Virus record (IMG/VR): IMGVR_UViG_3300033518_000153
Location: 1-30,311 of that record
From: a virus
Taxonomy: Duplodnaviria > Caudoviricetes
Length of the DNA: 30,311 nucleotides
Strand: one strand, 5' to 3'
The number at the start of each line of letters is the position of its first letter. The first letter of the stretch is position 1. A program made the translations under genes and the position numbers. The notes under the pieces are model-generated. The model saw only the letters and a list, made by a program, of their open reading frames with translations, made no database searches and was not told where the DNA came from. This document shows, piece after piece, positions 11,880 through 25,389 of the stretch.

Positions 11880-11956
11880 TGGTAGAATGCACGGGGTTCG
11901 AACCCGTTTCTCCGCCTTGAAAGGGCAGCGACCTTCGCCAAGAAGTCCAATGCGCC
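11880..11956 (-). tRNA. tRNA-Glu(TTC), poorly paired acceptor stem (possible pseudo-tRNA)
   Basis: Good D, anticodon (CT-TTC-AA) and T arms; acceptor GGCGCAT/GCATTCT mismatched. Confidence 0.6.
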
Positions 11957-12080
11957 ATTACTTAGAAGATGCACTGTGGGTTGTCTTACCTATCCATTCC
12001 CTGAGGTTTGCCGGCCGGCGTAAGGGCATAGGGTGCTTTCCCGAGCAGTTTTGAGAACAGTGCATCGTCAAAGTAATGTT

Positions 12081-12108
12081 TGGTGAACCGCCAGGGAATC
12101 GAACCCTG
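12081..12108 (-). pseudogene. Orphan tRNA 3' fragment (T arm, acceptor strand, CCA)
   Basis: CAGGGTTCGATTCCCTGGCGGTTCACCA directly after tRNA-Lys. Confidence 0.6.
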
Positions 12109-12114
12109 ATAGCT

Positions 12115-12196
12115 TGGTGAACCCGTGCAGAGTCGAACTGCTTGTCGGGGGATTAAAAGTCCCTTCCACCTCCGAGGGGGTCTAGACTACGGGTCC
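12115..12196 (-). tRNA. tRNA-Lys(TTT), atypical D region
   Basis: Acceptor GGACCCG/CGGGTTC, GGGA-CT-TTT-AA-TCCC, CCA. Confidence 0.7.
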
Positions 12197-12831
12197 AATT
12201 TTTTTATTAGTTCCTCAATGTATATTTTTTTAGCAGCATCGTCAAGTTTCTTGTATTTTGCCCACCTAACTCTGATTACCTTCCATCCGTTGTCTCGGAG
12301 GAATTTTGTTCTTCGTAAGTCGCTGCTGACGATCTTTTCATCCAAGTAGTGTTGTTCTCCATCAATCTCAAGCGCCACTTTTGGTCTTAGGAATGCAAAA
12401 TCGATACTGTATAATCGTATCTGGTATTCTTGCTCATAGTCAAGATTGTAGCTATCGAGAACCGCTTTCCAATAAATCTCCGGATATGATGCACCTCTAC
12501 TAGAGTGATTTAACAAATACGGAACCTGAGATGGATTCTTAAGCAAGTAATCGGTCCGGGCTGCAGAAATCTTTTGCTTGGTTTGGTCGGAATGTGTCCT
12601 GCCTTGCGATTTGGCTCTGATCTTTTTCTTTGTTAGATCATTGATTGCAAGTCGAGAATCAACATCCTTAGTTAAACCAGCATTCCAAGCTTTGTGGCCG
12701 GCCTTAAAGCCAGCATTTGGCGACGGCTTAGGATATATAACTCGATTTGGATTCAGGACGCAACCAAATTGATGCCTTGCTAATCCGCCCGAATTTGCAA
12801 TTTCCTTACCACAGTAAACACATGCCGCCAT
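12187..12831 (-). CDS. Vsr/DUF559-like endonuclease with N-terminal Zn finger and NUMOD3-like motif
   Basis: CVYC, HSDQTKQKIS, YSIDFAF...ALEIDGEQH...GWKVIRVRW; GGAGG RBS; stop lies inside tRNA-Lys. Confidence 0.85.
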   Translation of the reverse strand: MAACVYCGKEIANSGGLARHQFGCVLNPNRVIYPKPSPNAGFKAGHKAWNAGLTKDVDSRLAINDLTKKKIRAKSQGRTHSDQTKQKISAARTDYLLKNPSQVPYLLNHSSRGASYPEIYWKAVLDSYNLDYEQEYQIRLYSIDFAFLRPKVALEIDGEQHYLDEKIVSSDLRRTKFLRDNGWKVIRVRWAKYKKLDDAAKKIYIEELIKKLDP

Positions 12832-12871
12832 AATAGTCCTCCATTGAACTATTATTTATGCAAGTTAACTC

Positions 12872-13036
12872 CTATTGACCAATGATAGGACGCGGTCCAT
12901 ACTGTATGGATTGCATCGCGACCTTTTCCAAACGTCGCAGCGCCTTGTTGGTTTTACCGTGCGCTCCCGAACGTTTCGTAGCAAGATGGGCTACGAACGG
13001 ATTACGTTCTTTGGGCACTTGTCGTTTGTGTTTCAT
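12872..13036 (-). CDS. Small basic protein (54 aa, not in ORF track)
   Basis: MKHKRQVPKERNPFVAHLATKRSGAHGKTNKALRR...; AAAGGAG RBS, TTGACA promoter upstream. Confidence 0.7.
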   Translation of the reverse strand: MKHKRQVPKERNPFVAHLATKRSGAHGKTNKALRRLEKVAMQSIQYGPRPIIGQ

Positions 13037-13185
13037 CTTGCTCTCCTTTCTATGTAGTCAATATAACACGTTGTTGGGCAGTGTCAACCTCAATCTTCTT
13101 CGGTCCACTGCCAGTTGCCGTTCTCGTCGTAGTAGCCGATCCCAGCGTGTTCATTTCGGCTTCTGTGCTGTAGACAGGCGGTATG

Positions 13186-13256
13186 ATGCCCGAACACGAC
13201 TCGAACGTGTATCAACTGATTCAAAGTCAGCTATCCTGCCATTAGACGATCGGGCA
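13186..13256 (-). tRNA. tRNA-Gln(TTG), CCA not encoded
   Basis: Acceptor TGCCCGA/TCGGGCA, loop CT-TTG-AA. Confidence 0.85.
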
Positions 13257-13318
13257 ATATATTTGGGTTTTGTTCCTGCGTTCTGTCACGATACGCCCTG
13301 CAGACCCTACTGCCTATT

Positions 13319-13398
13319 TGGTGGACGGGATGGGAATCGAACCCACACGTTTGCCGGTTAAGAGCCGGTTCCAATTGACCACTGATTGGACCCCGTCC
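13319..13398 (-). tRNA. tRNA-Lys(CTT), 5-bp D stem
   Basis: Acceptor GGACGGG/CCCGTCC, loop CT-CTT-AA, CCA. Confidence 0.8.
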
Positions 13399-13495
13399 GA
13401 AATTTGTATAGCACATCACTCGGTAGAATTGAACCACAGTCAGCGCGTCGTCCACGTCTATGAACCATCGACCCGTCGGGTCGATGTGCTATTGT

Positions 13496-13582
13496 TGGTG
13501 GAGACGCACGGAGTTGAACCGTTAACGGTGCGCACTGTTTATCACCGCCTTGCGGCGGCCGCTGACTGGCAGCTTACGTCCC
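13496..13582 (-). ncRNA. tRNA-like RNA without canonical anticodon loop
   Basis: Acceptor GGGACGT/GCGTCTC, T arm, CCA; middle holds CCGCC-GCAA-GGCGG hairpin. Confidence 0.5.
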
Positions 13583-13594
13583 TATATTGTGTTT

Positions 13595-13670
13595 TGGTAG
13601 GCCTGTGGGGGTCGAACCCAACACCGACGCGATTTTGTAAGAATCGCCGACTACACCATAGCTGCGGCCT
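13595..13670 (-). tRNA. tRNA-Val(TAC), atypical extended anticodon stem
   Basis: GCGATT-CT-TAC-AA-AATCGC, T arm, CCA. Confidence 0.65.
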
Positions 13671-13679
13671 GTATTTGTT

Positions 13680-13756
13680 TGGTGCCCTGTGAAAGAGTCG
13701 AACTTTCTCTTGATCCATACCAGGGATCTGTGCTAAGCCGTTATCACTAACAGGGC
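13680..13756 (-). tRNA. tRNA-Thr(GGT)
   Basis: Acceptor GCCCTGT/ACAGGGC, GATCC-CT-GGT-AT-GGATC, CCA. Confidence 0.88.
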
Positions 13757-14299
13757 AATGTCTTTCCATTCAAGCTGGTGTTCAGTGAGCACAATAACGG
13801 TTATGTTATTTCTCAGCTGGGCTTGCTGGATTTTGTCTTTGTCTTTCTCCCGGAGATACGGATTCTTGGGATCCAAGTAAACGTCGTATTTCGGTAAGTA
13901 GAAATCTGGATAATACTTGTTGCCGGCATCCGTCCAAACGAACCCAGTGTTTGGCCTAGACCAAGCAATACCGTTCTTGTCAAGCGATTCAGCTACTGTT
14001 ACTTCCCACCTTGAATCAAACCATATGTCCTTGTATCGCTGTCCTTTGTTTGGATGTGGGCGATATCCACCTAAGTTAGAAGCCTTTGCTCTGGCGCTAG
14101 CTTCTTTCTTTTTTGCGTCACTCATCACATATTTTTGCAATAAACGAGACTCGGGTTGAGTCCGTGTAGCAAGGTTTAGGCGCTGTATAGTTTGGACAGT
14201 TACCTTGTAATGTTTGGCCAACTTGCGCAACGATAGTCCGTTGTCATACAACGTCTGCGCTTCGCTTTTGTCGATGTTTTTGGGTGCATACTTGTTCAT
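13733..14299 (-). CDS. HTH plus PD-(D/E)XK-type endonuclease
   Basis: LSLRKLAKHY HTH; FDSRWE...YYPDFYLP.YDVYLDPK; TATAAATA at 14305-14312; last 8 codons overlap tRNA-Thr. Confidence 0.8.
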   Translation of the reverse strand: MNKYAPKNIDKSEAQTLYDNGLSLRKLAKHYKVTVQTIQRLNLATRTQPESRLLQKYVMSDAKKKEASARAKASNLGGYRPHPNKGQRYKDIWFDSRWEVTVAESLDKNGIAWSRPNTGFVWTDAGNKYYPDFYLPKYDVYLDPKNPYLREKDKDKIQQAQLRNNITVIVLTEHQLEWKDIALLVITA

Positions 14300-14310
14300 G
14301 TGTTTATTTA

Positions 14311-14347
14311 TACCCAAAGAGGTGTAATACCATTATACGATAGCAGC
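14311..14347 (-). pseudogene. Orphan tRNA 5' half truncated at the anticodon loop
   Basis: GCTGCTA TC GTA TAATGGTAT TAC A CCTCT TTGGGTA running into TATAAATA. Confidence 0.6.
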
Positions 14348-14355
14348 ATGTTAGT

Positions 14356-14431
14356 TGGTAGCCCCAGCCGGACTTGAACCGAGCATCATTAGATTGAAAG
14401 TCTAGTATCCTTACCTTTAGACGATGGGGCC
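14356..14431 (-). tRNA. tRNA-Glu(TTC)
   Basis: Acceptor GGCCCCA/TGGGGCT, loop CT-TTC-AA, CCA. Confidence 0.8.
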
Positions 14432-14438
14432 GTTGTTT

Positions 14439-14513
14439 TGGTGCACGAAGAAGGAATCAAACCCTCGACATCCGCGTTACGAAGGCGGCGTTCTCTCACT
14501 GAACTACTCGTGC
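14439..14513 (-). tRNA. tRNA-Thr(CGT)
   Basis: Acceptor GCACGAG/TTCGTGC, loop TT-CGT-AA, CCA. Confidence 0.75.
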
Positions 14514-14519
14514 ATGAAT

Positions 14520-14597
14520 TGGTGTGCTGTCCTGGACTCGAACCTGGTTCTGCTGCTTTTCAGACAGCCGCTAAATCACCCGACTAGCTCACAGCAC
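14520..14597 (-). tRNA. tRNA-Phe(GAA)
   Basis: Acceptor GTGCTGT/ACAGCAC, loop CT-GAA-AA, CCA. Confidence 0.85.
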
Positions 14598-14604
14598 ATT
14601 GTTT

Positions 14605-14689
14605 TGGTGCACGGGATCGAACACCGCGCCGTTACCGGAAAAGCTTTACAGGCTCCTGCAAGAACCATCTTGCCTTACTTGCGCTCCCC
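14605..14689 (-). tRNA. tRNA-Tyr(GTA), degenerate acceptor/T stem
   Basis: GGAGC-CT-GTA-AA-GCTTT, variable arm, TTCGATC, CCA; acceptor does not pair. Confidence 0.55.
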
Positions 14690-14694
14690 ATATT

Positions 14695-14769
14695 TGGAAC
14701 CAGGTATGGGAGTTGAACCCAATCCATCTCAGTCACAGTGAGATATGCTACCCTTACACCTTACCTGGC
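14695..14769 (-). tRNA. tRNA-His(GTG)
   Basis: TCTCA-CT-GTG-AC-TGAGA, T arm, CCA. Confidence 0.85.
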
Positions 14770-14823
14770 ACTATTGGTCCCGACGGTAGGATTTGAACCT
14801 GGCTATCCACAATCGGGTGTGCT

Positions 14824-14871
14824 CGCCTCTAAGAGATGTAGTCTTACTATGCTATTTATCTCTTAGAGGCG
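14824..14871. repeat. Perfect 14-bp inverted repeat
   Basis: CGCCTCTAAGAGAT / ATCTCTTAGAGGCG; overlaps a minus-strand ATAAATA. Confidence 0.8.
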
Positions 14872-14878
14872 CTCTATG

Positions 14879-14947
14879 TAGTGCCAGTGAGAGTTGAACT
14901 CACCCTAGATCCTTATGAGAGATCTGTCCGAACCACTCGGTGTCACC
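14879..14947 (-). tRNA. tRNA-Met or Ile2 (CAT), compact, CCA not encoded
   Basis: GATCT-CT-CAT-AA-GGATC, GTGAG-TTCAACT-CTCAC. Confidence 0.65.
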
Positions 14948-14953
14948 ATATCT

Positions 14954-15028
14954 TGGAGTCACGTAACGGAGTTAAACCGTTCTAACTGGGTTTGCAATCC
15001 AGTGCCTCTGTCGCTCGGCCAACGTGAC
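14954..15028 (-). tRNA. tRNA-Cys(GCA)
   Basis: Acceptor GTCACGT/ACGTGAC, loop TT-GCA-AA, U73, CCA. Confidence 0.88.
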
Positions 15029-15182
15029 ATATTTCGTATTAGTGAAGCACACTCAGTGTGCTTGACAAATACAACCGGAATTTTACTAGTGCTCACCGCA
15101 CGTTGATCCTCCGGTCCGCCCATTTCGGTTTGTTTATAGTGATTACCGCGCAGTCTCGTTCCGCATGTCCACTTAGTCCATT

Positions 15183-15219
15183 AAAAAACCCTCCTAGTAT
15201 CGCTACTGGAGGGCTTTTT
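15183..15219 (-). terminator. Attenuator terminator A
   Basis: CCCTCCAGTA-GCGA-TACTAGGAGGG-TTTTTT. Confidence 0.9.
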
Positions 15220-15242
15220 GGAATTCCTGTGATGCTGTTATG

Positions 15243-15338
15243 CTAGCATCCGGTTCCGCCTCCAGTGTTCTCGCCAAAGCGATACTCACGGCATTTTTCA
15301 ATGCGAATCTCAAACATATGTTGCTGGACGTGGGTCAT
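15243..15338 (-). CDS. Putative attenuator leader peptide A (31 aa, MTHVQQHMFEIRIEKCREYRFGENTGGGTGC)
   Basis: Between promoter and terminator; ACTGGAGG (15259-15266) is complementary to terminator 5' arm; codons mirror downstream tRNAs. Confidence 0.75.
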   Translation of the reverse strand: MTHVQQHMFEIRIEKCREYRFGENTGGGTGC

Positions 15339-15390
15339 TTGCTGTAGCTTTCTCTGGTGCGTTGCCGCTGTTGTCTTACTTGTTGTAGTT

Positions 15391-15419
15391 ACTGTATACT
15401 TATTTATCTCTGCCGTCAA
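15391..15419 (-). promoter_or_regulatory. Sigma70-like promoter with embedded late motif, upstream of leader A
   Basis: TTGACG-N17-TACAGT with ATAAATA in the spacer. Confidence 0.7.
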
Positions 15420-15464
15420 CCACTATTAGTGGTTTTCTGGCATCTTTTTTCTGCGTCGTGTTAG

Positions 15465-15557
15465 TGGCGGAAGCGGTGGGATTCGAACCCACGGAACGCT
15501 CATCACGTTCATCTGTTTTCAAGACAGGCGCCTTAAGCCGGACTCGGCCACACTTCC
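15465..15557 (-). tRNA. tRNA-Ser(TGA)
   Basis: CCTGT-CT-TGA-AA-ACAGA, long variable arm, GCCA; TATAAATA upstream. Confidence 0.93.
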
Positions 15558-15629
15558 ATATTCGTTATGTTATTTATACACGGAGACGCCAGGCTGGTCA
15601 ACCTTTTTCTCCGTGTATCTGCATTTTTC

Positions 15630-15893
15630 TTAGATGTAGTAAATCACAGTCTTTGGATCCAGGTAGGCCGTTTGCTCCGGATCCACCATCCATCCTTGGC
15701 TTTGGATGATCTCAGCAGTGCGGACCACGCCACGGTTGCTATACCAAACGTGGTCGCCACCGCTGCCAATCACGTGCTCGTAGTTTGCTGGAATGCCAAC
15801 CACGCGGGTGCATTCGTCTGGGGTAAGCTTGCGTCTACTGGCGCGTAGTATCAGCTCAAAGTAGCAGCCGTCTGCACTGTGGCTCAGGGTCAC
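15630..15893 (-). CDS. Hypothetical protein, start uncertain
   Basis: 87 aa ORF downstream of TTGACA promoter near 15983. Confidence 0.4.
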   Translation of the reverse strand: MTLSHSADGCYFELILRASRRKLTPDECTRVVGIPANYEHVIGSGGDHVWYSNRGVVRTAEIIQSQGWMVDPEQTAYLDPKTVIYYI

Positions 15894-15988
15894 ATACGGC
15901 AGATTTGAGAGTGATGGTGTATTTGGTCATCTGGCTTTCTCCGTTGCCTACAGTTCAATATAGCACAGAGTGTGTTGGTGTCAACCGT

Positions 15989-16366
15989 TTAGAATGGGTT
16001 GAGTGCGCCCCACAGCATACGGAACAGCGCCCATGGCCATAGCAGCGGCAAACGACGCTTGTGTGGTGCTGGTGTGTCTCGCCACTTACGCACGGTGCTG
16101 TCGATCCAACCATGCTCCTTGTGCCACAGCACAACGTGGCGCGGCAGTAGTTTGTTCTGTGGCGAGTGTGTCAGCCAAAACACTGCGCGGAAGGTGAGCA
16201 GTGCCCAGATAGCCTTGAGCCAACCGCCCTCAACAGTGAGCAGCGTGGTCAGCGCAAAGTCGTTGCAGTTGCCAGCGTATGGCGCACTGTCGATACGGCG
16301 CCAACCTGTGATGAATGTCCAACCCTTGCGGTAAGTGAACTTTGAGATGAATTCTGTGCTTGTCAT
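15989..16366 (-). CDS. Hypothetical protein with Cys/His/Asp triad-like motif
   Basis: GNCNDFA...HVVL...WID resembles transglutaminase-like cysteine protease; GGAG RBS. Confidence 0.6.
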   Translation of the reverse strand: MTSTEFISKFTYRKGWTFITGWRRIDSAPYAGNCNDFALTTLLTVEGGWLKAIWALLTFRAVFWLTHSPQNKLLPRHVVLWHKEHGWIDSTVRKWRDTPAPHKRRLPLLWPWALFRMLWGALNPF

Positions 16367-16644
16367 GTTAACTCCGTTTTATATCTGCCGATCCGTCCCC
16401 GGCCCCTGTTCTTTCCTTTGTAACTGTCAGTCATACTGTGGCAGTTCGGACAGAGCAGCCTTAGATTTTCTAGTGCATTGTTATGCGGGTCGCCGGCGGT
16501 GTAGTCTAGTTCGAGAGTAATCGGTTGCCCTTGCCATTCTGTTAGCTTGCACATACTGCAACAGTTGCCGACGGTGTCTCTTACATACCTCTTAGCCCGC
16601 CCCGGTGAGCGTCTGGCTGCCACGACACACCACCCTCTAGCCAT
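16363..16644 (-). pseudogene. HNH endonuclease, probably degenerate
   Basis: CSMC...LELDY..GD..NN.LENLRLLCPNCHS (expected His replaced by Tyr); N-terminus appears in another frame (16581..16778). Confidence 0.7.
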
Positions 16645-16815
16645 TGCTCAACTCTGACTTTGTTCTCGTGTTCTTTCTCAATCGAGGCGGCAGTGCTGCA
16701 TGGCACTGAGCGCAAACTGTTGGTGATTTGTCGTAGTCTAATCTTTGAGGGGCGAGTGGCATAAATAACTCCTTGCATGGTTATTTATGCCACTCGGCTA
16801 CTAGGGCGATATTTC

Positions 16816-17112
16816 TTATGCTGTCTTAGGCTTGTTTCTTTCAATTGCGATGCTCTTCTCAATGATGGCAAACTCTGGCCAATCAATTCCTTCGCTGTGC
16901 ATGGCGGAAATCACGTTCTCAATGCCAGCCAGGTTTGTTTCATACTGCGACTCTTTGATCTTGGTCAGCATGGCTTTGCTCACACTTGGCTTCTCAAGGT
17001 CCGGAATGCCCAGCTTGTCCTTGGCCCAATATCCCACATCCATTGGAATAGTCTCGGTGACACGCTTGTCGTCTGTCTCGCTCGACTGTAAAGCTTCTTT
17101 GGCCCACTGCAC
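16816..17112 (-). CDS. Hypothetical protein, possibly a gene fragment
   Basis: 98 aa protein-like composition, GTG start without clear RBS. Confidence 0.45.
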   Translation of the reverse strand: MQWAKEALQSSETDDKRVTETIPMDVGYWAKDKLGIPDLEKPSVSKAMLTKIKESQYETNLAGIENVISAMHSEGIDWPEFAIIEKSIAIERNKPKTA

Positions 17113-17427
17113 TTATTGAACGCCAGTCTCGACCTTACCACTTGTCGACACTCTATAATAGAGTGACCTGCTCTCCGGATGGGATTCGGGCTGGCCGTTC
17201 TCAATTTGGCGATCCGTTAGCCTCGCTGGGTTGGAAACCAGCTGGTGAGACCCCTGTAAAGACCAGGATGTTGTTTTTGTGCTGTAGGTCGGGACGGATC
17301 AAGCCCGATAGTCTACCTTATAGCATACAAGTTAGCATGATTTTTTGATCATGTCAACCAAAATCATACATAGTGATGTAGCTCGCGGGCGGCAACCCCA
17401 GCTACTCTATTGTTTAGGGACAACAGC

Positions 17428-17961
17428 ATGAATATTTACCCATACGTCTATCGCATAGACCACCCAAGTGGTGAGTTCTACATCGGCTACCGCTGCGCTA
17501 ACCAAGTGCCAGCTGGAGCAGACATTGGATACAAATACAAAACCAGCACTAAGCACTTATCCTATCCGTTTGAGGAATACAGCATCACTATCTTAGCTGA
17601 GTTCTTTACTGCCACTGCTAAGACAGACGCGCTTGACTTCAAACAGGCAACTATATACGAGCATTGGGGCAACCCATTCCTTGTAAACAAACGCTGCAAC
17701 TACAACGGACAACGGTTTAGCACTGCCGGAACAACATTGTCTTCTGCTACTAGGCAAAAGATGTCAACCAGTCGTCGAGGTGTTCCTCGCAGCGAGGAGA
17801 CTAAGGCAAAGATTCGAGAAGCAAATCTCGGCAAGAGCTTGTCAGATGAACATCTGCGTAAGATTTCAATCGGGCGTCGCGGAAAAGGCACTGCGCCAAA
17901 GACAGCCGAACATAAGCGGAAGATTTCTGAATCCTTACTAGGAACATACAAGACTCGTTAG
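17428..17961 (+). CDS. GIY-YIG-like/NUMOD3 homing endonuclease
   Basis: YVY...FYIGYR, SEETKAKI repeats, conserved leader. Confidence 0.85.
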   Translation: MNIYPYVYRIDHPSGEFYIGYRCANQVPAGADIGYKYKTSTKHLSYPFEEYSITILAEFFTATAKTDALDFKQATIYEHWGNPFLVNKRCNYNGQRFSTAGTTLSSATRQKMSTSRRGVPRSEETKAKIREANLGKSLSDEHLRKISIGRRGKGTAPKTAEHKRKISESLLGTYKTR

Positions 17962-17964
17962 ATG

Positions 17965-17997
17965 GAAAAAGCCCAACATTGCTGCTGGGCCTTTTTC
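17965..17997. terminator. Bidirectional intrinsic terminator closing tRNA cluster B
   Basis: AAAAA-GCCCA...TGGGC-CTTTTT between convergent units. Confidence 0.75.
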
Positions 17998-18001
17998 TAT
18001 T

Positions 18002-18076
18002 TGGAGCGGGCGATGGGATTCGAACCCACAACTTCAACCTCGGCAAGGTTGCACTCTACCATTGAGCTACGCCAGC
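18002..18076 (-). tRNA. tRNA-Gly(GCC)
   Basis: CAACC-TT-GCC-GA-GGTTG, TCCA. Confidence 0.88.
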
Positions 18077-18084
18077 ATGTGATT

Positions 18085-18158
18085 TGGAGCGGGTAGCGGG
18101 GAACGATCCCGCTTCTGAGCGTTGGCAACGCGCCGTAATACCTTTATACGATACCCGC
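18085..18158 (-). tRNA. tRNA-Gly(GCC), second divergent copy
   Basis: Acceptor GCGGGTA/TACCCGC, loop TT-GCC-AA, TCCA. Confidence 0.85.
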
Positions 18159-18189
18159 ATTTGTTTTGGTCTGTATTGGACCGTTGTTT

Positions 18190-18241
18190 TGGTCCGAGTG
18201 GACCGTTGTTGTTTGGTCTGGCCAAGCTGAGCTACACTCGG
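18190..18241 (-). pseudogene. Collapsed tRNA-Pro-like remnant
   Basis: CCGAGTG TAGCTCAGCTTGGCCAGA...CACTCGG ACCA; anticodon and T arms absent. Confidence 0.6.
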
Positions 18242-18651
18242 ATATCTTTTCTACGCTGCCAAGCAAGCTTCATTGCTTCGCTTTGTGTCTTCTTGTATTT
18301 ATCTGTCTTGTGGTTCGCAGAATTCTTATTCTGCATCATCTTGCTAGAAATTATCGCTTTGGTTTCGTCTGTATGAGCATCAACGCCGCCGGCGGCATTA
18401 AGTGATATTTTACTTCTATGCTCGGCTGTCTTTGGTATTCCTTTGTTGCCCTTGCCGCCTAACCTTGATTTCTCTAGCAGCATTTCTTCTTGGCCTATTA
18501 GTTTCAACAGACCCAAATACGCAATCTTGTCTTCAACTTTTCCGTATTGCTCATACAGCACACGATGCGCTTCAGCATGTTCTTCGATGGTCAACTCGAT
18601 TAGGTTAGTCGGATTATCGTCGCCGCCCATATGCCTGGGAATGATGTGATG
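18232..18651 (-). pseudogene. HNH/NUMOD3 endonuclease, 5'-truncated
   Basis: HHIIPRHMGGDDNPTNLIELTIEEHAEAH; first His pair lies upstream of the first ATG (18630). Confidence 0.7.
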
Positions 18652-18689
18652 GAGAGTCTTTCAGTCACGCGGTAAGCCGCGAGCTGTAT

Positions 18690-18773
18690 TGGTGCGGATA
18701 GAGGGACTCGAACCCCCACGCCTTGCGGCAATGCGTTCTAAGCGCATCAAGTCTACCATTTCATCATATCCGC
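18690..18773 (-). tRNA. tRNA-Leu(TAG)
   Basis: ATGCG-CT-TAG-AA-CGCAT, variable arm, CCA. Confidence 0.92.
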
Positions 18774-18780
18774 ATTAGTA

Positions 18781-18860
18781 TGGAGGCCTAGAATGGATTT
18801 GAACCACTACCTTTACCCTTGCACGGGTAACGAGTTAAATGCCAATTTCTCTACCAGGCC
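18781..18860 (-). tRNA. tRNA-Cys-like (GCA) with non-7-nt anticodon loop
   Basis: Acceptor GGCCTGG/CTAGGCC, U73-CCA, TTACCC-GTGCAA-GGGTAA. Confidence 0.55.
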
Positions 18861-18865
18861 AATTC

Positions 18866-19372
18866 TTAGAATTCGTTTGCTGACCTCGGAACCTTCTTTG
18901 GATCCAATTTGGGCAGCGGTTGTTTAGTCTCTTTGTAGGTTGATGGCCAACGTGCTGCCAGCAGTCTAGTCTTTACAATACGCACAATGCTCACTGTATC
19001 GCCCTGGTTGCCACCTAGCACATAGTAGTCTGTGGCGTCTTCGCCGACCAATATGCCCACGTGTCCTGCGTTTTCGCCTCGGCTAAACGCACCAATTGCG
19101 CCATACACTGGCTTGGTTGCTTTTCCTAGTAGGGCCCAGTTACGAGCCCAATATGGGTTCTCTCCAAGCGCACCTGGAAACGGTTCTTTGGGCAGTGAGT
19201 TCTTAATCACCGTCTCAGCAAAGTCACCGCACCATGGCAGTTTGGCTGGATCGCCCAGCGTCTTACCATCCGACTTGAGCCAAGCTCGCAGTTTGGTTGC
19301 GTCTCTACTTTCGTGTAGGCCCCAAACCTTTTTGGCTTCAACAATCCATGGTAGTTCTTTAACAGCTAACAT
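18866..19372 (-). CDS. TIGR02594-family (NlpC/P60/CHAP-like) cell-wall hydrolase
   Basis: PWI..A...G..E, PWC..F, AR.W, GHVG, VLGGNQ.D.V, RWP. Confidence 0.85.
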   Translation of the reverse strand: MLAVKELPWIVEAKKVWGLHESRDATKLRAWLKSDGKTLGDPAKLPWCGDFAETVIKNSLPKEPFPGALGENPYWARNWALLGKATKPVYGAIGAFSRGENAGHVGILVGEDATDYYVLGGNQGDTVSIVRIVKTRLLAARWPSTYKETKQPLPKLDPKKVPRSANEF

Positions 19373-19467
19373 AGCACATCTCCCGTTGCTATGTCTATAT
19401 TTATTGCCTCTGTGGTTTAATACAGTTTTTGTTATACTATGGTAAATAGTTCAAAGGAGATCAAACT

Positions 19468-19827
19468 ATGCCAAAAAAAGGTGAAGTTGTTAAAACGCAC
19501 TTATGCGAAACATGTGGCGAACGCAATCCAACTAACTTCAATCCCAGGATGAAAGGCACTTGCAAAAAGTGCCATACAAGGGACATTGAACGGCGTCGAG
19601 TATCGCGCAGAGAACTAGCCATTGAATACAAGGGCGGCAAGTGTGAGCATTGCGGTTACAACAAATTCCGTGGCGCTCTTGAGTTTCACCACAAAGACCC
19701 AACACTAAAGGATCCACAGGGTTTGAAGGCTGTCAAGCTTTCGAAGTTGTTTGCCGAAGTTGACAAATGTCTGCTACTGTGCGCTAACTGTCATAGGGAA
19801 GAACATGACCGTATACGTTATGGTTGA
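19468..19827 (+). CDS. HNH endonuclease
   Basis: KGGKCEHCGY...LEFHHKDP...E.DKC.LLCANCHREEH; TAAATA and AAGGAG upstream. Confidence 0.9.
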   Translation: MPKKGEVVKTHLCETCGERNPTNFNPRMKGTCKKCHTRDIERRRVSRRELAIEYKGGKCEHCGYNKFRGALEFHHKDPTLKDPQGLKAVKLSKLFAEVDKCLLLCANCHREEHDRIRYG

Positions 19828-20030
19828 ATATGCACCGAACCCTTATACTACATGGCCAACGCCAAGGCGGTCGAGCTAATCCCGCATCTTCTGGTTATCC
19901 CCAGCTGTATTATAGGACGCGTCAACGCCCGCCGCTCTAGTTCTTTCGGACCACAACAGTTGACGATTCGTCAAGTCGAGCATAGGACTTATTGGTGCTA
20001 GTGGAGGGACTCGCCTTTCACTAGCTAATT

Positions 20031-20105
20031 TGGTGCCCCAGGTCGGAATCGAACCAACACACTCGCCTTACAAGAGCGAACCTCTACCATTAAGGATACA
20101 AGGGC
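20031..20105 (-). tRNA. tRNA-Thr(TGT)
   Basis: TCGCT-CT-TGT-AA-GGCGA, CCA. Confidence 0.88.
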
Positions 20106-20108
20106 TTA

Positions 20109-20249
20109 TTAGTAACTTTTCTGTTCGGCATACCTTACTCGTCTTGAATGCCTACCATTACCTTTATTTTTAGATTTATACGTTGCAGTTTGCGAATGGC
20201 AATTCGGACACAATAGACTTAAATTTTCTTCGCTGTTATTTATCATCAT
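20109..20249 (-). pseudogene. HNH C-terminal remnant
   Basis: NNSEENLSLLCPNCHSQTATYKSKNKGNGR, similar to 16363..16644. Confidence 0.7.
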
Positions 20250-20282
20250 AACTAAAAAAGGTGCTGTCGCCGCTGAGCCACA

Positions 20283-20543
20283 CTAGCGTATTTCTTCGAG
20301 GTATTTATACACCTCGTCGTAGGACTTGAACATTCTGGTTCCACGCTTTGATACTACGCGCACATCGTCTCCGAAGCACTGCACTAGTCCAAATCCTGGA
20401 TACCTACCGTTACCAAGTCGTCTTGCATTCCATCTGGTGCGGCGCGCCCCTGGTGTCGCAAACTCGTGCGGTATACCTAGTATGTCTGCGCAGCGCCCGT
20501 AAAATTCTTCTTTCTCTTCGTTTGTCTTTTTCATATTGCCCAC
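20283..20543 (-). CDS. Hypothetical protein
   Basis: RRTRWNARRLGNGRYPGFGLV motif, 86 aa. Confidence 0.65.
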   Translation of the reverse strand: MGNMKKTNEEKEEFYGRCADILGIPHEFATPGARRTRWNARRLGNGRYPGFGLVQCFGDDVRVVSKRGTRMFKSYDEVYKYLEEIR

Positions 20544-20832
20544 TCACATACGGATATTGTTGTTTAGATAGGCCTGGCACTCCAACACGCCTTCTCGAGT
20601 GTAATGTTGTCTAGCCGGGTAGCTTGCGGCATTCCTCACACTTCTCATGCGGGCCTAAATTGTATTGCGCCGCTGAACACTACCACAGCGTTTGAGTTAT
20701 TTACTAATCCCGCTCCATGATCAGTGGGGTTGAGCCTCGTGCTATTACCTCATCCCACTCCACGTGGGCACCACGTGTCCGATTCAACACGGTGCACCGC
20801 GTCTCATCTTTTTCTGTGGCCTAGCGCAAACT

Positions 20833-20906
20833 TGGAGCGGGTGAAGGGAGTCGAACCCTCGTCTTCTACTTGGAAGGCAGTGGCTCTACCATTGAGCTAC
20901 ACCCGC
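20833..20906 (-). tRNA. tRNA-Gly(TCC)
   Basis: Canonical, loop CT-TCC-AA, TCCA. Confidence 0.92.
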
Positions 20907-20984
20907 ATTATCTCTTGCATACCCTGAAAAGGTTACCACCGTAGTGCGTCCCAGCTCTGTTATGGCTGGATGACCGTGCTGTTT

Positions 20985-21070
20985 TGGCGGAGCGGCTGGG
21001 AGTCGAACCCAGTGAACTCGAAAGTCCTACAGATTAGCAATCTGCTGCATTACCATCCTGCCCCCGCTCC
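20985..21070 (-). tRNA. tRNA-Ser(GCT)
   Basis: GCAGA-TT-GCT-AA-TCTGT, variable arm, GCCA. Confidence 0.92.
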
Positions 21071-21076
21071 ATTGCG

Positions 21077-21298
21077 TCACTTTTTAGTGCTGCATGTGAA
21101 CTCAAGTCCACTTTGTCTTGCAGCATAGAAGTGAGGCGTTGTAGTTTTGTATAGTGTCATCTTGATGAACCCTGGAAGGATCACCACAATCTTGTCTGCC
21201 GTGGTCTGGATCAACTCTGCTTCTTGCTTCTTGCCATTGTTCGTGCAGTAAACGTCTACCAGATCCTTGAACCTCGAGCTAGTATTGATGTCTGCCAA
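21077..21298 (-). CDS. Hypothetical protein
   Basis: 73 aa, AAGGA RBS, TTGACT promoter upstream. Confidence 0.65.
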   Translation of the reverse strand: MADINTSSRFKDLVDVYCTNNGKKQEAELIQTTADKIVVILPGFIKMTLYKTTTPHFYAARQSGLEFTCSTKK

Positions 21299-21386
21299 CT
21301 CTACGTTCCTTCTTTGTCAGTTAACTATAGCACTACCTAGTGCCACAGTCAACCTTTGTTTTTGGTGCGCGATGAGCGCATATTTT

Positions 21387-21462
21387 TGGTAGGGGATGAG
21401 AGGGTCGAACTCCCGACATTCTGCGTGTAAAACAGACGCTACTACCACTGAGCTAATCCCCC
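21387..21462 (-). tRNA. tRNA-Val(TAC)
   Basis: TCTGT-TT-TAC-AC-GCAGA, CCA. Confidence 0.9.
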
Positions 21463-21469
21463 AATGTTT

Positions 21470-21546
21470 TGGTGGACCCTGTCGGGATCGAACCGACGAA
21501 CCTCCTGAATGCAAATCAGGCGCTCTCCCAACTGAGCTAAGGGCCC
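21470..21546 (-). tRNA. tRNA-Ala(TGC)
   Basis: G3:U70, loop TT-TGC-AT, CCA. Confidence 0.93.
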
Positions 21547-21576
21547 TTTCTTATTTTCAATGTAACACACTATTGT

Positions 21577-22212
21577 TTAGGTGTCAACATGTTTATTTAG
21601 CACTCTTCCGAAACGCCAACCTGCCGGCACAGTATCTGTTGCTGATATCTTTTTGTTGTTAAGACCATCAGTAATCCATACTTTTCCAAACTGACTGTTT
21701 TTCTCTCCAACTGCAACCCCTTTTGAGCTGGCTCTTATTTTTTGCTTAGTCTCGCTGCTATGGGCTTTTCCTTTGAACCCATCGTGTCGTATACGTCCTG
21801 CTAGTCGTGCAGCCTCAAAGTTGTTACTGCATTGCGGATTTTTTCTTCCTCTGCGTTTTTCAGCAGTTTTCCTAATTCCGCGCATTTTTGATTCAGTTGG
21901 CAAGTTGTTGATGCCAAGTTGATTGATATAACCAAACCCGCCTTGACCGCCTACGCACAAGTTGTAGTTGTCTTTTCGTAGACACCATTCTTCAGTAACC
22001 AGCTCTTTTTCTTTTTGATTCATTTCGGCTTCTGTGCTGTAGACATGCAGTATGGTTTTAACGAAGTTCTCGGCGCCGTATTTGGCAATGGCTCTCTTCA
22101 GGTGCTTGCCCGAACCCATATAGCCGTCGTTGACTTGACTGGTTTCGTGCTTACCGATGTAAGTTTTGCCATTCACCAAGTTAGTGATTTTGTAGATGGT
22201 GTAGTATTTCAT
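21577..22212 (-). CDS. GIY-YIG (Seg-like) homing endonuclease
   Basis: YTIYKITNLVNGKTYIGKH...DGYMGSG...YN...GG.GGF, NUMOD3; likely start MKYY at 22212. Confidence 0.92.
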   Translation of the reverse strand: MKYYTIYKITNLVNGKTYIGKHETSQVNDGYMGSGKHLKRAIAKYGAENFVKTILHVYSTEAEMNQKEKELVTEEWCLRKDNYNLCVGGQGGFGYINQLGINNLPTESKMRGIRKTAEKRRGRKNPQCSNNFEAARLAGRIRHDGFKGKAHSSETKQKIRASSKGVAVGEKNSQFGKVWITDGLNNKKISATDTVPAGWRFGRVLNKHVDT

Positions 22213-22279
22213 GTTGTGCTCGCCTGCAAATGGAATAGTCTGATTGTTATTGCTATTTACCATTTGCAGGCGCTCTATG

Positions 22280-22350
22280 CGCGCTATGCGGGGCTCGAAC
22301 CCGCTACACCGGTTAGACAGACCAGTGAGATACCCATTCACCAATAGCGC
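22280..22350 (-). tRNA. tRNA-Asp(GTC), CCA not encoded
   Basis: Acceptor GCGCTAT/ATAGCGC, loop CT-GTC-TA, G73. Confidence 0.8.
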
Positions 22351-22550
22351 ATTATTCTGGTGCGTGTTTACTCCCTACACGCAGGTCCCACACATCACCG
22401 CAGCATACAAAGCCTGCTGGGCTACAACGTGCGTGGCGCTGGCTTTCTAGTTTTGACATGCTTTGGTCGGCTCACCGATTCGAACGGTTAAGTAATACGA
22501 GTAGTATCCGCATACCTACGCCAAAGAACGCTCGTAACTCATGTCAAAAT

Positions 22551-22625
22551 TGGCAAGGGTGGAGAGATTCGAACTCTCACTGCAAGGTTTTGGAGACCCG
22601 CCGACTTCCAGTATCATACACCCCT
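22551..22625 (-). tRNA. tRNA-Trp(CCA)
   Basis: Acceptor AGGGGTG/CACCCTT, loop CT-CCA-AA, GCCA. Confidence 0.88.
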
Positions 22626-22760
22626 ATAATCTGTAACCAGTTACTGGATTCGAACCAGAATCTACTCTAGGGCCAATTACTCCCATCACTGAGCGTGTTA
22701 ACCTGCATCACTGCAGGAAGGCTTACCATTCGCCAATTTTACAACCACAACCGGTAATCT

Positions 22761-22824
22761 TGGCTCCTTGTGCTGGGCTCGAACCAGCGACACTCTGATT
22801 AATAATCAGATACTCTAACAAGGA
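22761..22824 (-). tRNA. D-armless tRNA-Asn-like (ATT), possible pseudogene
   Basis: Perfect acceptor, anticodon and T stems; D arm reduced to TAGAGTA. Confidence 0.6.
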
Positions 22825-22832
22825 ACGATCTC

Positions 22833-23222
22833 TTAAACGCCGTAACGGTTGCGCTTTGGTTTAGCTACAACACTGGCTTTGTTTGTGTTTGGTGGTTCTT
22901 GGCTGCGCTGGCTTGTAAGCTTGGTGGGTGTAACACCCATCAATTTAGCAGCCTTGTTCATAATCTCAAGTTCTTCTGGCGTGTATGTGCCAACTAGGAA
23001 GTTTTCAGCATACGCACTTTCTTGGTCAAACGGTTGATCGCTGCTGGCTGCTGCCAACGCAATTCCCATTCTGTATTGCATGTAACTGTCAGTGTTGCGC
23101 AGTTGCTTGAATGCATTCATGCCGGTGTTCACTGCGTCAAACGCTGGATCAACCTCTCCAGGCGTTCCCATAGCGCCGTCACCGTAAACAGCTTCACTTA
23201 GTATTTCATGCAATCGCATCAC
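22833..23222 (-). CDS. Hypothetical late protein
   Basis: MRLHEILSE N-terminus, AAGGA RBS, TAAATA at 23241-23246. Confidence 0.75.
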   Translation of the reverse strand: MMRLHEILSEAVYGDGAMGTPGEVDPAFDAVNTGMNAFKQLRNTDSYMQYRMGIALAAASSDQPFDQESAYAENFLVGTYTPEELEIMNKAAKLMGVTPTKLTSQRSQEPPNTNKASVVAKPKRNRYGV

Positions 23223-23314
23223 GTGTCCTTTTGGCTACAGTATTTAGCCAAAATTCTTGCGTCTTATGGATTTGGCGTCCTGCGCTAGTGTAAACCCATC
23301 ATGTTCTTCTCACT

Positions 23315-23387
23315 TGGCAGGGGACCCCTGAATTGAACAGGGACCTGAACCGGCAATCGGGACTACGCTGCATTACACCAATCCCCT
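23315..23387 (-). tRNA. tRNA-like gene with degenerate anticodon arm (nominal TTG)
   Basis: Acceptor AGGGGAT/GTCCCCT, T arm, GCCA; loop GATTGCC lacks U33. Confidence 0.5.
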
Positions 23388-23576
23388 GTAACCTGCTAAG
23401 TTCTCCAACAACTGATTACCCAGCGCCTCTGGTGGAGCGTTTGTTGGATAGGCGTGCATTGACGCCTCGTTTTACTTCTAACATGTAGTCTTGTAAACTT
23501 TGGCCAATCTTTCCCGGTGTCAGCATTGTAGGATTTCTCATGTCCAAGAGCGCGGTTGCTTCGCTTCAGACTAACT

Positions 23577-23655
23577 TGGTCCGGGTGGCTGGATTTGAAC
23601 CAGCGTTCTCCTGTTTCCAAAACAGGCAGATTAAACCATGCTTTCCCACACCCGG
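23577..23655 (-). tRNA. tRNA-Pro(TGG)
   Basis: CCTGT-TT-TGG-AA-ACAGG, acceptor CCGGGTG/CACCCGG, CCA. Confidence 0.88.
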
Positions 23656-23663
23656 ATATTTTT

Positions 23664-23742
23664 TGGTTGCGCAGACTGGATTTGAACCAATGATCTCCAG
23701 CTTATGAGGCTAGCGAGGACGCCCTGACTCCTCTACCGCGCG
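23664..23742 (-). tRNA. tRNA-fMet(CAT), initiator-like
   Basis: C1:A72 mismatch, loop CT-CAT-AA, CCA. Confidence 0.85.
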
Positions 23743-23757
23743 ACAATTCTTTAGTTT

Positions 23758-23843
23758 TGGCTCGGACGGGAGGAATCGAACCTCCGCCAACTTAATGGGA
23801 CACTGGTTAACAGCCAGGCACATTACCACTCTGTCACATCCGA
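23758..23843 (-). tRNA. tRNA-Asn(GTT) with long variable region
   Basis: Acceptor TCGGATG/CGTCCGA, loop CT-GTT-AA, GCCA. Confidence 0.82.
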
Positions 23844-24130
23844 ACGATGTCTTGCCAGCGTATAACCAACAGTTGATCATACGCATCTCGTTTTCCTTTT
23901 CTGGCGTTCTCCCAACTTGGAAGATATTGCAAGTTATCTTGATGATGCTTGCCGCCGTTTGCTAGTGCAACTATATGATCGATCTGGTAACCAACTGGCG
24001 CATGTTTGTAAATGCGTTTTATTAGCTCAAGGTCGGCATCATCGGGCACCGCATTTCTTTTTCGTGCTCTATTAGGCATATACGTTTGCTTTGTTGCCGG
24101 CGCGCATCTTAGATATAACAGCGCCATCAC
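23834..24130 (-). CDS. HNH endonuclease, N-terminus probably disrupted
   Basis: YQIDHIVALANGGKHHQDNLQYL...EN..K; stop lies inside tRNA-Asn. Confidence 0.75.
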   Translation of the reverse strand: MMALLYLRCAPATKQTYMPNRARKRNAVPDDADLELIKRIYKHAPVGYQIDHIVALANGGKHHQDNLQYLPSWENARKGKRDAYDQLLVIRWQDIVRM

Positions 24131-24904
24131 CTGGACGACTCAGTGGGAATGATTTAGTAACACTGCACGACGGATTTGAACCGTCTCCCCTTTCGACCCG
24201 AGGGAACCGCCATATGACGCTTGGGTGCCCACTACAGTGTATGTGTTTGGCTCTATCCGCATTAGGACGATTTAACTGCTCTAGCCTCACAGTGCCGTGT
24301 CGTATGTGGTTCTACCAGCGGGCTGGCGACTTAGCTGACGCCCTCACTATCGTCAGTGCCGTGTTATATCTCTCCAGCTTGCAACCTCACGGGCTGCTCT
24401 AGAAGCGTTATTGTTTAGCTTCAAGGTCTCCCACTGGAATGACCTTTCTTGGGGCTCGCGCCGCCTTGGCTTGGAAACAAAACAAGACCGTCTGCGTTTC
24501 TACGCGCGTTGCTGCTCGGGGTTTCCCTGTTACAGTTGGCCCTTCCTGCACCTCGTCGATCTCGTTCTGTTTTGATATACGCACACCATGACGCTGGGAT
24601 TTCTCCGCTGACCGTATGCCGAATCGAACGACAATGCGTATATCAAAACAGAACAGCCATACTCAGTCTGGTTCGACCTACGTCTCCCAGCTTAGAGGTA
24701 TGACCCCTCTGTTTCTTCGGCCCGTCATCGCTTATCTGCTGGGGCCATCATACTAAATTTTCAATGAGCGTGTAAACTTTCGTCTACATAGCTAACTTAG
24801 CGCATCTTGTTTGCTTCGTCAACCACTATTTTGTCGTCTGTCGTATCTTTTTGTCTTCTTCTGGAAGTTCTGGTTTGCACCGTCTACGTTCCGTCTACTG
24901 TTAC

Positions 24905-24933
24905 TATATAAGCTGTCTCGTCGTGTTTGTCAA
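24905..24933 (-). promoter_or_regulatory. Sigma70-like promoter downstream of terminator B
   Basis: TTGACA-N17-TATATA. Confidence 0.6.
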
Positions 24934-24956
24934 TACCTATCTTCAACTTTTACAAG

Positions 24957-24990
24957 AAAAAACCCTCCTAGCATCGCTGCTGGAGGGTTT
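24957..24990 (-). terminator. Attenuator terminator B
   Basis: AAACCCTCCAGCA-GCGA-TGCTAGGAGGG-TTTTTT; homologous to terminator A with a compensatory pair. Confidence 0.9.
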
Positions 24991-25018
24991 CAAAAACTTT
25001 TGGACTGTTTCTTGTCCG

Positions 25019-25108
25019 TTAGCCTCCGTAACCCTCCGAGCATAGATCCACACTCGGATTTGTCCATCCGTTGCTACCTAGTGCTACTGTGTTGGCGAGT
25101 GTAAACAT
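25019..25108 (-). CDS. Putative attenuator leader peptide B (29 aa, MFTLANTVALGSNGWTNPSVDLCSEGYGG)
   Basis: AAGGA and ATAAATA upstream; GGAGGGTT (25030-25037) is complementary to terminator 5' arm; codons mirror downstream tRNAs. Confidence 0.75.
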   Translation of the reverse strand: MFTLANTVALGSNGWTNPSVDLCSEGYGG

Positions 25109-25197
25109 TGAAAACTATCGTCCTTCTTATCTTTTATTTATCTCTTGTAGTCTATAGACTACAGCAAATCGGCCTCGATCTGCAATATTTTTCTGCC

Positions 25198-25389
25198 TTA
25201 GGCCGTCCAGTATGCTTCGCTCGAGCAGTAGTTGGGCGTGGTCACCGCAGCTTTGGCAGCACGGGTCACCGCAGCTTTGGCAGCACGGGTCACCGCAGCT
25301 TTGGCAGCGGCTGCGGCAGCAAACGAGCTCCGGCCAGCTTTCGACTTAACAACCCGAGTCGTCACAGTGTCATAAACAACGTAGCCCAT
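25198..25389 (-). CDS. Small Ala/Lys-rich protein with tandem repeat
   Basis: GAGA-rich RBS, TTGACA promoter, RAAKAAVT repeats. Confidence 0.6.
   Translation of the reverse strand: MGYVVYDTVTTRVVKSKAGRSSFAAAAAAKAAVTRAAKAAVTRAAKAAVTTPNYCSSEAYWTA
25240..25308. repeat. 24-bp tandem repeat, about 2.9 copies
   Basis: GGTCACCGCAGCTTTGGCAGCACG, exact copies. Confidence 0.95.

Follow-up and report, generated by a model that had tools for sequence, protein, structure and literature searches.

How does a phage that carries a large set of tRNA genes decide when to transcribe them? The question is raised by a 30 kb viral record (IMGVR_UViG_3300033518_000153; 30,311 nt, ~49% GC, Caudoviricetes), analysed over its full length and called the window throughout, in which two tRNA gene clusters, A and B, are each headed by a short upstream open reading frame (uORF, here the leader) and a hairpin of the intrinsic terminator type. 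Comparison with related sequences and folding models together make it likely, in our view, that both units are ribosome-coupled transcription attenuators that sense tRNA-limited decoding and feed back through the phage tRNAs themselves.

Both units lie on the minus strand, one per tRNA cluster (Table 1). The hairpin starts 29 nt past the stop codon of leader A and 31 nt past that of leader B and is followed in each case by six U; the two terminator stems are identical at 23 of 25 nt, and no other CCTCC...GGAGG hairpin is present in the window. A GGAGG strand contained in the last codons of each leader is complementary to the 5' arm of its own hairpin. A sequence-only reading of this DNA had described each cluster as headed by a short ORF, a complementary segment and a homologous terminator, and our coordinates, strand and stem comparison agree with that description. 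It had also considered the two leaders complementary in residue content, and this is borne out by the residues exclusive to one of them (H, I, K, M, Q and R in leader A; A, D, L, P, S and W in leader B). The sensor part, that is, the 43 codons that precede the pairing strand in the two leaders, contains together with the start Met all 20 amino acids.

ARAGORN found 26 tRNA genes in the window under default settings, and its -ps95 calls were C,M,H,F,T,E,T,V,K,Q,E for cluster A and N,M,P,N,W,D,A,V,S,G,T,G,L,G,G for cluster B. The tRNA lists of the sequence-only reading need correction for a Tyr gene assigned to A, which is degenerate and stayed uncalled even at -ps85, and for a Cys gene assigned to B, also degenerate and called as Gly-CCC. 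With position 1:72 unpaired, the Met tRNA of cluster B resembles an initiator. Every amino acid of the called tRNAs is found in the leader of its own cluster (9/9 for A, 11/11 for B). At the level of codons, a tRNA of the own cluster matches 42 of the 58 leader codons, a number that drops to 19 once the leaders are swapped, and relabelling of the tRNA sets places the match of the two window leaders above chance (p=0.0014). For the codons before the antiterminator strand, a boundary set post hoc, the figures are 35/43 and 10 (p=0.00016). Random slices of window proteins of the same length covered both tRNA sets in 0.08% of draws.

The first related leaders came from loci found via ornithine decarboxylase. 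For the homologue search the query was the terminator motif alone, and neither leader nor tRNA was used; the exact shared-terminator pattern was too strict and had no match in the viral contigs, and blastn of the leader regions against cultured phages gave chance matches only. Among viral contigs 25 stretches matched, 19 of them distinct, and 18 of these 19 are followed by tRNAs and preceded by a uORF that stops 27-33 nt before the motif (L038 has neither). A metagenome scan (119 of an estimated 130 stretches; 94 distinct, 39 with enough flank to evaluate) gave 23 hits with both uORF and tRNA, three with the uORF only, none with tRNA only and 13 with neither (Fisher p=7e-8). The combination of uORF and CCCTCC...GGAGGG terminator before tRNA arrays, which the sequence-only reading had proposed to look for in relatives, is recurrent. 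Three related contigs have two such hairpins each and two have none; in a contig of 330 kb and in another of 111 kb each of the two hairpins stands before a tRNA cluster. The pooled set comprises 71 distinct leaders, those of the window included: 26 of type A, 28 of type B, 11 long ones from phages with a single cluster (type M) and six others (four without tRNA, two with), which were left out. The remaining 65 are 19-57 codons long, and all are followed by a hairpin and U-tract 25-35 nt past the stop (selection window 20-40 nt), 53 of them at 26-30. What lies downstream are tRNA clusters, not amino-acid biosynthesis or synthetase genes. Further leader types, outside the A, B and M peptide patterns, stand before tRNA clusters at L011:11571, L044:10001 and L048:7830.

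Several features of the leaders are compatible with translation. The GAGG core is kept in a single frame in 54 of 59 leaders, the indels of 12 aligned A ORFs are triplets (judged by eye), and a strict Shine-Dalgarno sequence precedes 39 of 54 A and B leaders, compared with 70 of 607 random ATGs.

A way to approach the meaning of these leaders is to ask whether their content changes with that of the clusters behind them. We have used for this purpose the 30 A and B units with at least eight tRNAs (19 A, 11 B). The amino acids of the tRNAs (Met excluded) are present in the unit's own leader in 261 of 267 cases; leaders of the other type reach 148 and random slices of proteins 188+-6. Conversely, the own cluster supplies a matching tRNA for 80% of the sensor codons, and clusters of the other type do so for 25%; in a less redundant set of 24 units the values are 79% and 27%, with the own cluster higher in 23. 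Leader and cluster covary even within type A (p=1e-4 for 19 units, p=5e-5 for 17 less redundant ones), the match there being phage-specific. A residue is in both leader and cluster or in neither in 19/19 A units for Cys, 18 for His, 18 for Gln and 16 for Leu, and in L134 Asp and Leu have been gained by leader and cluster alike. Independent pairs, taken from a tree of concatenated tRNA genes, agree in 2/2 cases for Cys, 2/3 for His, 4/5 for Gln and 3/4 for Leu, and none shows the opposite change. The leaders hold ~12.5 different amino acids per 20-24 sensor codons, and in none of the types do one to three regulatory residues form runs or dominate. Phages of type M have one leader of 46-52 codons, and the 11 M leaders contain 18-20 amino acids in 38-44 codons (null mean 16).

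The match extends to synonymous codons. Thr is written as ACY 25 times and as ACR never in A leaders, while B leaders have 54 ACR and 8 ACY; along these lines, Thr-GGT is found in 5/19 A and 0/11 B clusters and Thr-TGT in 0/19 A and 11/11 B. For Ile, A leaders have 50 ATY and no ATA, B leaders 22 ATA and one ATY, and the Ile-GAT tRNA is present in 17/19 A and 0/11 B clusters. The ATA codons of B leaders might correspond to non-initiator CAT tRNAs of the Ile2 kind, found in 5/6 B units with ATA and 1/5 without (p=0.067, the Ile2 identity being judged by resemblance only); we regard this correspondence as suggestive only.

A similar design appears in other phage lineages. The CCCTC-GGAGGG pattern gave no unit at the tRNA clusters of Phosso, XbC2, LR745206 and CcrBL9, and the units described here came from a generic terminator-uORF scan and have different stems. 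The huge phage LR745206 has seven terminator-uORF units directly before tRNA groups, with leaders unrelated to those of the window, for instance Gln-rich where Gln genes follow and Glu/Tyr-rich ahead of Glu/Tyr genes; residue runs do occur in them. With the weak unit before a single Met gene excluded, the true pairing of leaders and clusters ranks 1 of 5040. In the cultured phage CcrBL9 (MH588546.1) a 32-codon leader, in a unit at about 88800-88950, holds all seven amino acids of a group of eight tRNAs. In the cultured Phosso a 54-codon leader starting with GTG contains 19 amino acids, and the 41 tRNA calls that follow represent exactly these 19, Cys being absent from both; the set is so broad that the match is weak when taken alone. 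The generic scan found no unit in LR745206 before single Cys, Arg and Met/Pro genes (L195, L191, L189), and gave weak candidates only for L001, L190 and the second CcrBL9 cluster. Neither 36 kb of XbC2 (28 called tRNAs) nor L009 yielded a leader unit in that scan, so the design is not universal.

In order to see how such a leader could act as a switch, the nascent transcripts of 63 leaders, cut before the 3' arm of the terminator, were folded with the ribosome modelled at successive positions. The mean probability of the antiterminator is 0.97-0.98 with the ribosome at least 11 codons before the stop, 0.95 without ribosome and ~0.5 within eight codons; near the stop it falls from 1.0 to ~0.3 at codons 21-22 in window leader B and only from 0.88 to 0.59 in leader A. 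In the full transcript the terminator has a probability of 1.00 in 63/63 leaders with the ribosome at the stop or six codons before it. Competing hairpins form before segment 3 exists, and the antiterminator still wins without a ribosome in 62 of the 63. Swapping strand and terminator arm between units lowers the stability of the pairing (from -18.9 to -17.4 kcal/mol, p=5e-5, 50 units), beyond the fixed core, and by type the covariation of strand and arm has p=0.002 in B, 0.02 in M and 0.085 in A. Folding and covariation together thus point to a predicted antiterminator that would exclude the terminator and whose 5' strand a ribosome finishing the uORF would cover.

As for the start of transcription, the motif ATAAATA, which may be a late promoter of the T4 type, occurs within 110 nt upstream of 59/64 leaders (23/26 A, 25/27 B, 11/11 M) and also precedes other window genes, such as the endolysin; no match to sigma70 region 2 was found in three related contigs. 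A strict sigma70 match lies upstream of 8/26 A and 0/27 B leaders.

Table 1. Features of the two leader-terminator units, their tRNA clusters and promoter-like sites (positions in the window)
Feature	Position	Strand	Details
Leader ORF A	15338 (ATG) to 15243 (TAG)	-	31 codons, MTHVQQHMFEIRIEKCREYRFGENTGGGTGC
Antiterminator strand A	15258..15266	-	ACTGGAGG..., complementary to terminator A 5' arm; predicted duplex -14.7 kcal/mol
Intrinsic terminator A	15183..15213	-	CCCTCC...GGAGGG, stem 15213-15189, U6 15188-15183; -14.5 kcal/mol
Leader ORF B	25108 (ATG) to 25019 (TAA)	-	29 codons, MFTLANTVALGSNGWTNPSVDLCSEGYGG; AAGGA ribosome-binding site
Antiterminator strand B	25030..25042	-	TGCTCGGAGGGTT; predicted duplex -19.6 kcal/mol
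Intrinsic terminator B	24957..24987	-	stem 24987-24963, U-tract 24962-24957; -16.5 kcal/mol
tRNA cluster A	11880..15028	-	Cys-GCA, Met-CAT, His-GTG, Phe-GAA, Thr-CGT, Glu-TTC, Thr-GGT, Val-TAC, Lys-CTT, Gln-TTG, Glu-TTC; degenerate Tyr-, Lys-TTT- and Ile-like remnants; interspersed nuclease-like genes (NUMOD3/DUF559, HTH)
tRNA cluster B	18002..23843	-	Asn-GTT, Met-CAT (initiator-like), Pro-TGG, Trp-CCA, Asp-GTC, Ala-TGC, Val-TAC, Ser-GCT, Gly-TCC, Thr-TGT, Cys-like (called Gly-CCC), Leu-TAG, Gly-GCC x2, remnants
tRNA-Ser(TGA)	15465..15557	-	directly upstream of leader A; Ser-TGA found in 7/11 B-type clusters
Promoter-like site before leader A	15391..15419	-	TTGACG-17-TACAGT, sigma70 type; embedded ATAAATA 15407-15401
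ATAAATA motif before leader B	25135..25141	-	late-promoter-like; no sigma70 match within 110 nt upstream
Promoter-like sites past terminator B	24747..24933	-	TTGACA at 24933; TTTACA-18-TATGAT at 24776; possible bypass, neither passes the strict rule
Internal promoter-like sites of cluster B	21587, 21352		
Further promoter-like site	13087		

Several observations weigh against this picture. Types A, B and M each derive from one ancestral design, and the homologue counts are therefore not independent; no single amino acid is significant in the independent pairs, Val, Asn and Thr covary little, and covariation within type B is weak (p=0.037). Many A leaders include T, S and G without such a tRNA in the cluster, and leader A of the window has two Ile and three Arg codons with no intact Ile or Arg tRNA in cluster A, orphans that can be understood from the relatives, in which Ile-GAT is present in 17/19 A clusters and Arg tRNAs in 68%. 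When set against genome codon usage, decoding by the anticodons of the own cluster is not enriched in A (35/53 vs 33.6 expected) and only mildly so in B and M (z ~2). Changes at the third codon position of A leaders are not in excess (0.39/0.40/0.41 by codon position), so these ORFs give no protein-like signal; a strict Shine-Dalgarno sequence is missing before window leader A, which has a weak site (AGAGA only), and before all 11 M leaders. At equilibrium the full transcript is mostly in the terminator fold despite an early stall (mean probability 0.78-0.86; 0.97-1.0 in window A), and the choice between antiterminator and terminator must consequently be kinetic, made during transcription. Finally, a sigma70-type promoter lies between terminator and first tRNA in 10/13 B units (0/23 A units), which makes it likely that attenuator B adds to a basal supply and is not the on-switch of its operon.

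These points can be used to weigh other explanations of the same locus. The signal could be amino-acid starvation (uncharged tRNA) or an unspecific slowing of ribosomes, with the match to the tRNA clusters secondary. The antiterminator is predicted with a ribosome at least 11 codons before the stop or, in 62/63 leaders, with none at all, and a general failure of translation, or general slowing, would accordingly open the attenuator too; cluster A is followed closely by a class II synthetase-like gene, and the textbook leader-peptide attenuators all sense amino-acid supply (PMC1183508, in part). However, the synonymous Thr and Ile codons follow the location of the isoacceptor genes, which amino-acid sensing would not need, and extra tRNA would be no cure for a shortage of amino acids. 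A small share of regulatory codons, moreover, confers low sensitivity to moderate limitation, with sensitivities converging as codons slow greatly (PMC1183508, same part), and with one to three codons per amino acid a severe loss of tRNA would suit these leaders better than mild starvation. We find it unlikely that starvation or unspecific slowing is what the leaders have been shaped to report.

A regulation that is ancestral and by now partly vestigial, the tRNAs being made mainly from promoters downstream of the attenuators or within the clusters, would be in keeping with the downstream promoters of the B units, with the promoter-like sites at 24776, 21587, 21352 and 13087, with the several degenerate tRNAs of the window and with the orphan Ile and Arg codons of leader A. 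Yet no A unit has a promoter match before its first tRNA, and both window units have their ORFs, spacings and pairings intact. Besides, leader A and cluster A of the window share Gln, a state found in only 4/19 A units, which argues that the pair has been kept matched in the lineage of the window. We regard partial decay as a very unlikely account. The conserved motifs of the peptides (approximately H-M-F-x-x-x-I-x-x-C-R-E-Y-R-F-G in A leaders, W-T-x-G-x-x-N-P-G-x-D-L in B leaders) and the terminator as equilibrium fold would fit small functional peptides, or ORFs that are by-products of RNA structure, followed by ordinary terminators. Such an origin would leave unexplained why, inside one type, leader residues change along with the tRNAs, why phages with a single cluster have one long leader with 18-20 amino acids, why the unrelated leaders of LR745206 each fit their own cluster and why strand and terminator arm covary, and we consider it very unlikely.

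We return thus to attenuation by tRNA-limited decoding. The leader would be translated in step with the host RNA polymerase; a ribosome stalled on any of the listed codons would leave the 5' arm of the terminator to pair with the leader strand, and transcription would enter the tRNA cluster, while a ribosome that arrives within ~8 codons of the stop would cover the GGAGG strand and let the terminator form. The signal is presumably a severe loss of usable tRNA through cleavage or decay in infection and not a mild amino-acid shortage, and newly made tRNAs would relieve the stall and close a negative feedback loop. A connection to anticodon nucleases in particular is what we would infer. A is likely a true gate, which would operate in early and late transcription alike, and B a conditional late booster on top of the promoters past its terminator. 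Of the proposal that stalling switches on the matching tRNA operon, the matched attenuator with many inputs is supported by conservation, covariation and folding, and the on-switch role of B is unlikely, given the downstream promoters in 10/13 units. On the whole we consider it fairly probable that the two leaders, which jointly sample all 20 amino acids at the resolution of isoacceptors, perform an audit of decoding in the entire cell, each gating the tRNA cluster that would repair the fault, as a sensor of tRNA destruction that is rewritten as tRNA genes move between clusters and that is present with unrelated sequences in distant phage lineages.

The reason for tRNA genes in phages has long been debated as an open question (PMC10264068, in part), and a sensor tied to decoding speed at the codons read by phage tRNAs would favour replacement of depleted tRNAs over supplementation of codon usage. 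The leaders may further serve as an aid to tRNA identity, in that ATA codons would tell which CAT genes are lysidine Ile tRNAs, and codons that lack a tRNA would mark recent losses. The cultured CcrBL9 and Phosso are possible bench systems, and the question could be approached with a 200-nt reporter.

Other elements of the locus deserve mention. Directly past terminator A, at the head of the predicted read-through transcript, lies a conserved structured RNA of ~100 nt (15074..15173, minus strand), a candidate new non-coding RNA or processing element for which no Rfam family matched and of which a motif search gave 15 distinct A-type variants including the window. It consists of a stem with an A-rich tail, a pseudoknot between loop and tail and a second covarying stem; the pseudoknot varies on both sides (by eye: GAG/CTC mostly, CGG/CCG in the window, CTC/GAG in L021 and L132, GGT/ACC in L134). 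Of the window's words, only 18% are present in RNA run X1 and 6% in RNA run X2, and contigs of near-identical strains (15125-15495 and 15094-15289) span terminator A, leader B being uncovered; DNA carry-over is possible and the contigs give neither ends nor levels, for which reason they were not used as evidence. Past terminator B there is a long non-coding region before the first tRNA (24130-24780, minus strand); it contains tRNA-like arms and, at 24560-24655, an inverted repeat, and eight loci match short parts of the region. Just upstream of leader B a short tandem repeat of ~21 nt (25232-25310) within a 63-aa ORF encodes repeated AAKAAVTR units. Between the clusters, a non-coding stretch follows a TTGACA motif near 17360 (17073-17360, minus strand) and is a candidate small RNA, with an X1 contig (depth 20) over 17073-17307 and one weak match in L093.

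Within the clusters some tRNAs are odd. The Thr-CGT call has an ambiguous loop readable as Arg (14439-14513), the Gly-CCC call looks Cys-derived (18781-18860) and a 5'-truncated Asn-like gene has an ATT anticodon (22764-22824). A tRNA-like element (13496-13583, minus strand) has acceptor and T arms with a GCAA tetraloop hairpin in place of the anticodon arm and may be a decoy or a remnant; it has a weak score with the tmRNA model, no match among the fetched loci and a similar contig in run X1. A hairpin with arms CGCCT...AGGCG that contains ATAAATA (14820-14872) splits the Ile-like remnant, and a similar one (22230-22275) flanks the start of a GIY-YIG gene, possibly as a scar of a mobile endonuclease. 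In related phages there are tRNAs with a CTA anticodon, like that of amber suppressors (L025, L011, L039, L182, L192), and one call with TTA (L032). The other window genes include those for a class II synthetase-like protein, Pth2, ornithine decarboxylase and several nucleases. The synthetase-like gene (11120-11818, minus strand) adjoins cluster A and encodes a stand-alone class II aminoacyl-tRNA synthetase core of 232 aa (PF00587). Other large phages have relatives of it at 37-64%, in many cases next to tRNAs. For two neighbouring proteins the closest cultured relatives are large phages of Caulobacter, Brevundimonas and Sinorhizobium (42-50% identity).

In the literature searched, which included few subscription papers and no supplements, we found no description of phage tRNA genes controlled by leader-peptide attenuation; attenuators are known to control amino-acid genes, and their application to tRNA genes appears new within that literature. 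The thr and ilvGMEDA attenuators are multivalent, and the pheM attenuator of the E. coli pheST synthetase operon controls a part of the translation apparatus via the supply of charged tRNA, although it responds to one amino acid and its output is an enzyme, whereas here there would be many amino acids and the output is tRNA. T-box riboswitches likewise link transcription antitermination to the status of tRNAs, by direct binding of uncharged tRNA and without translation, on which the mechanism proposed here would depend; no T-box covariance model matched in the window. The amino-acid leader families of Rfam gave no match at cut-off (Phe_leader reached 16 bits, with a cut-off of 55, in two relatives).

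A parallel in purpose are the phage tRNAs that counter tRNA-cleaving defences, for which the same replacement of depleted host tRNAs has been proposed (PMC10264068, PMC7824862, both in part), and Pth2 is encoded in the window as well; in those parts tRNA-gene regulation is not covered and the string 'attenuat' is absent. The trn operon (L-array) of Anabaena, with its repressor TrcR, is similar in being a tRNA array linked to translational stress, under which it is induced, and is long and horizontally spread (PMC8421152, PMC10272220, both in part). It is controlled by repression of its promoter, without codon-specific sensing (PMC8421152, in part; 'attenuat', 'leader' and 'terminator' are absent from the main text seen), unlike the codon-specific attenuation proposed here. 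Closest in architecture are the trp and his leaders (PMC1183508, in part), with which the units A and B share a short uORF, a predicted antiterminator strand covered by the ribosome, an exclusive terminator and codons cognate to what the operon supplies; super-attenuation may be missing here, to judge from the folding. The trp, his, thr and ilv attenuators have runs of one to three amino acids and control amino-acid operons, whereas each A- or B-type leader samples ~12 amino acids (18-20 in single-cluster phages) with one to three codons each, and its codons follow the isoacceptors of the phage tRNA genes that form its output. Attenuation would thereby extend to ~12-20 inputs instead of one to three, and its output to tRNAs besides enzymes.

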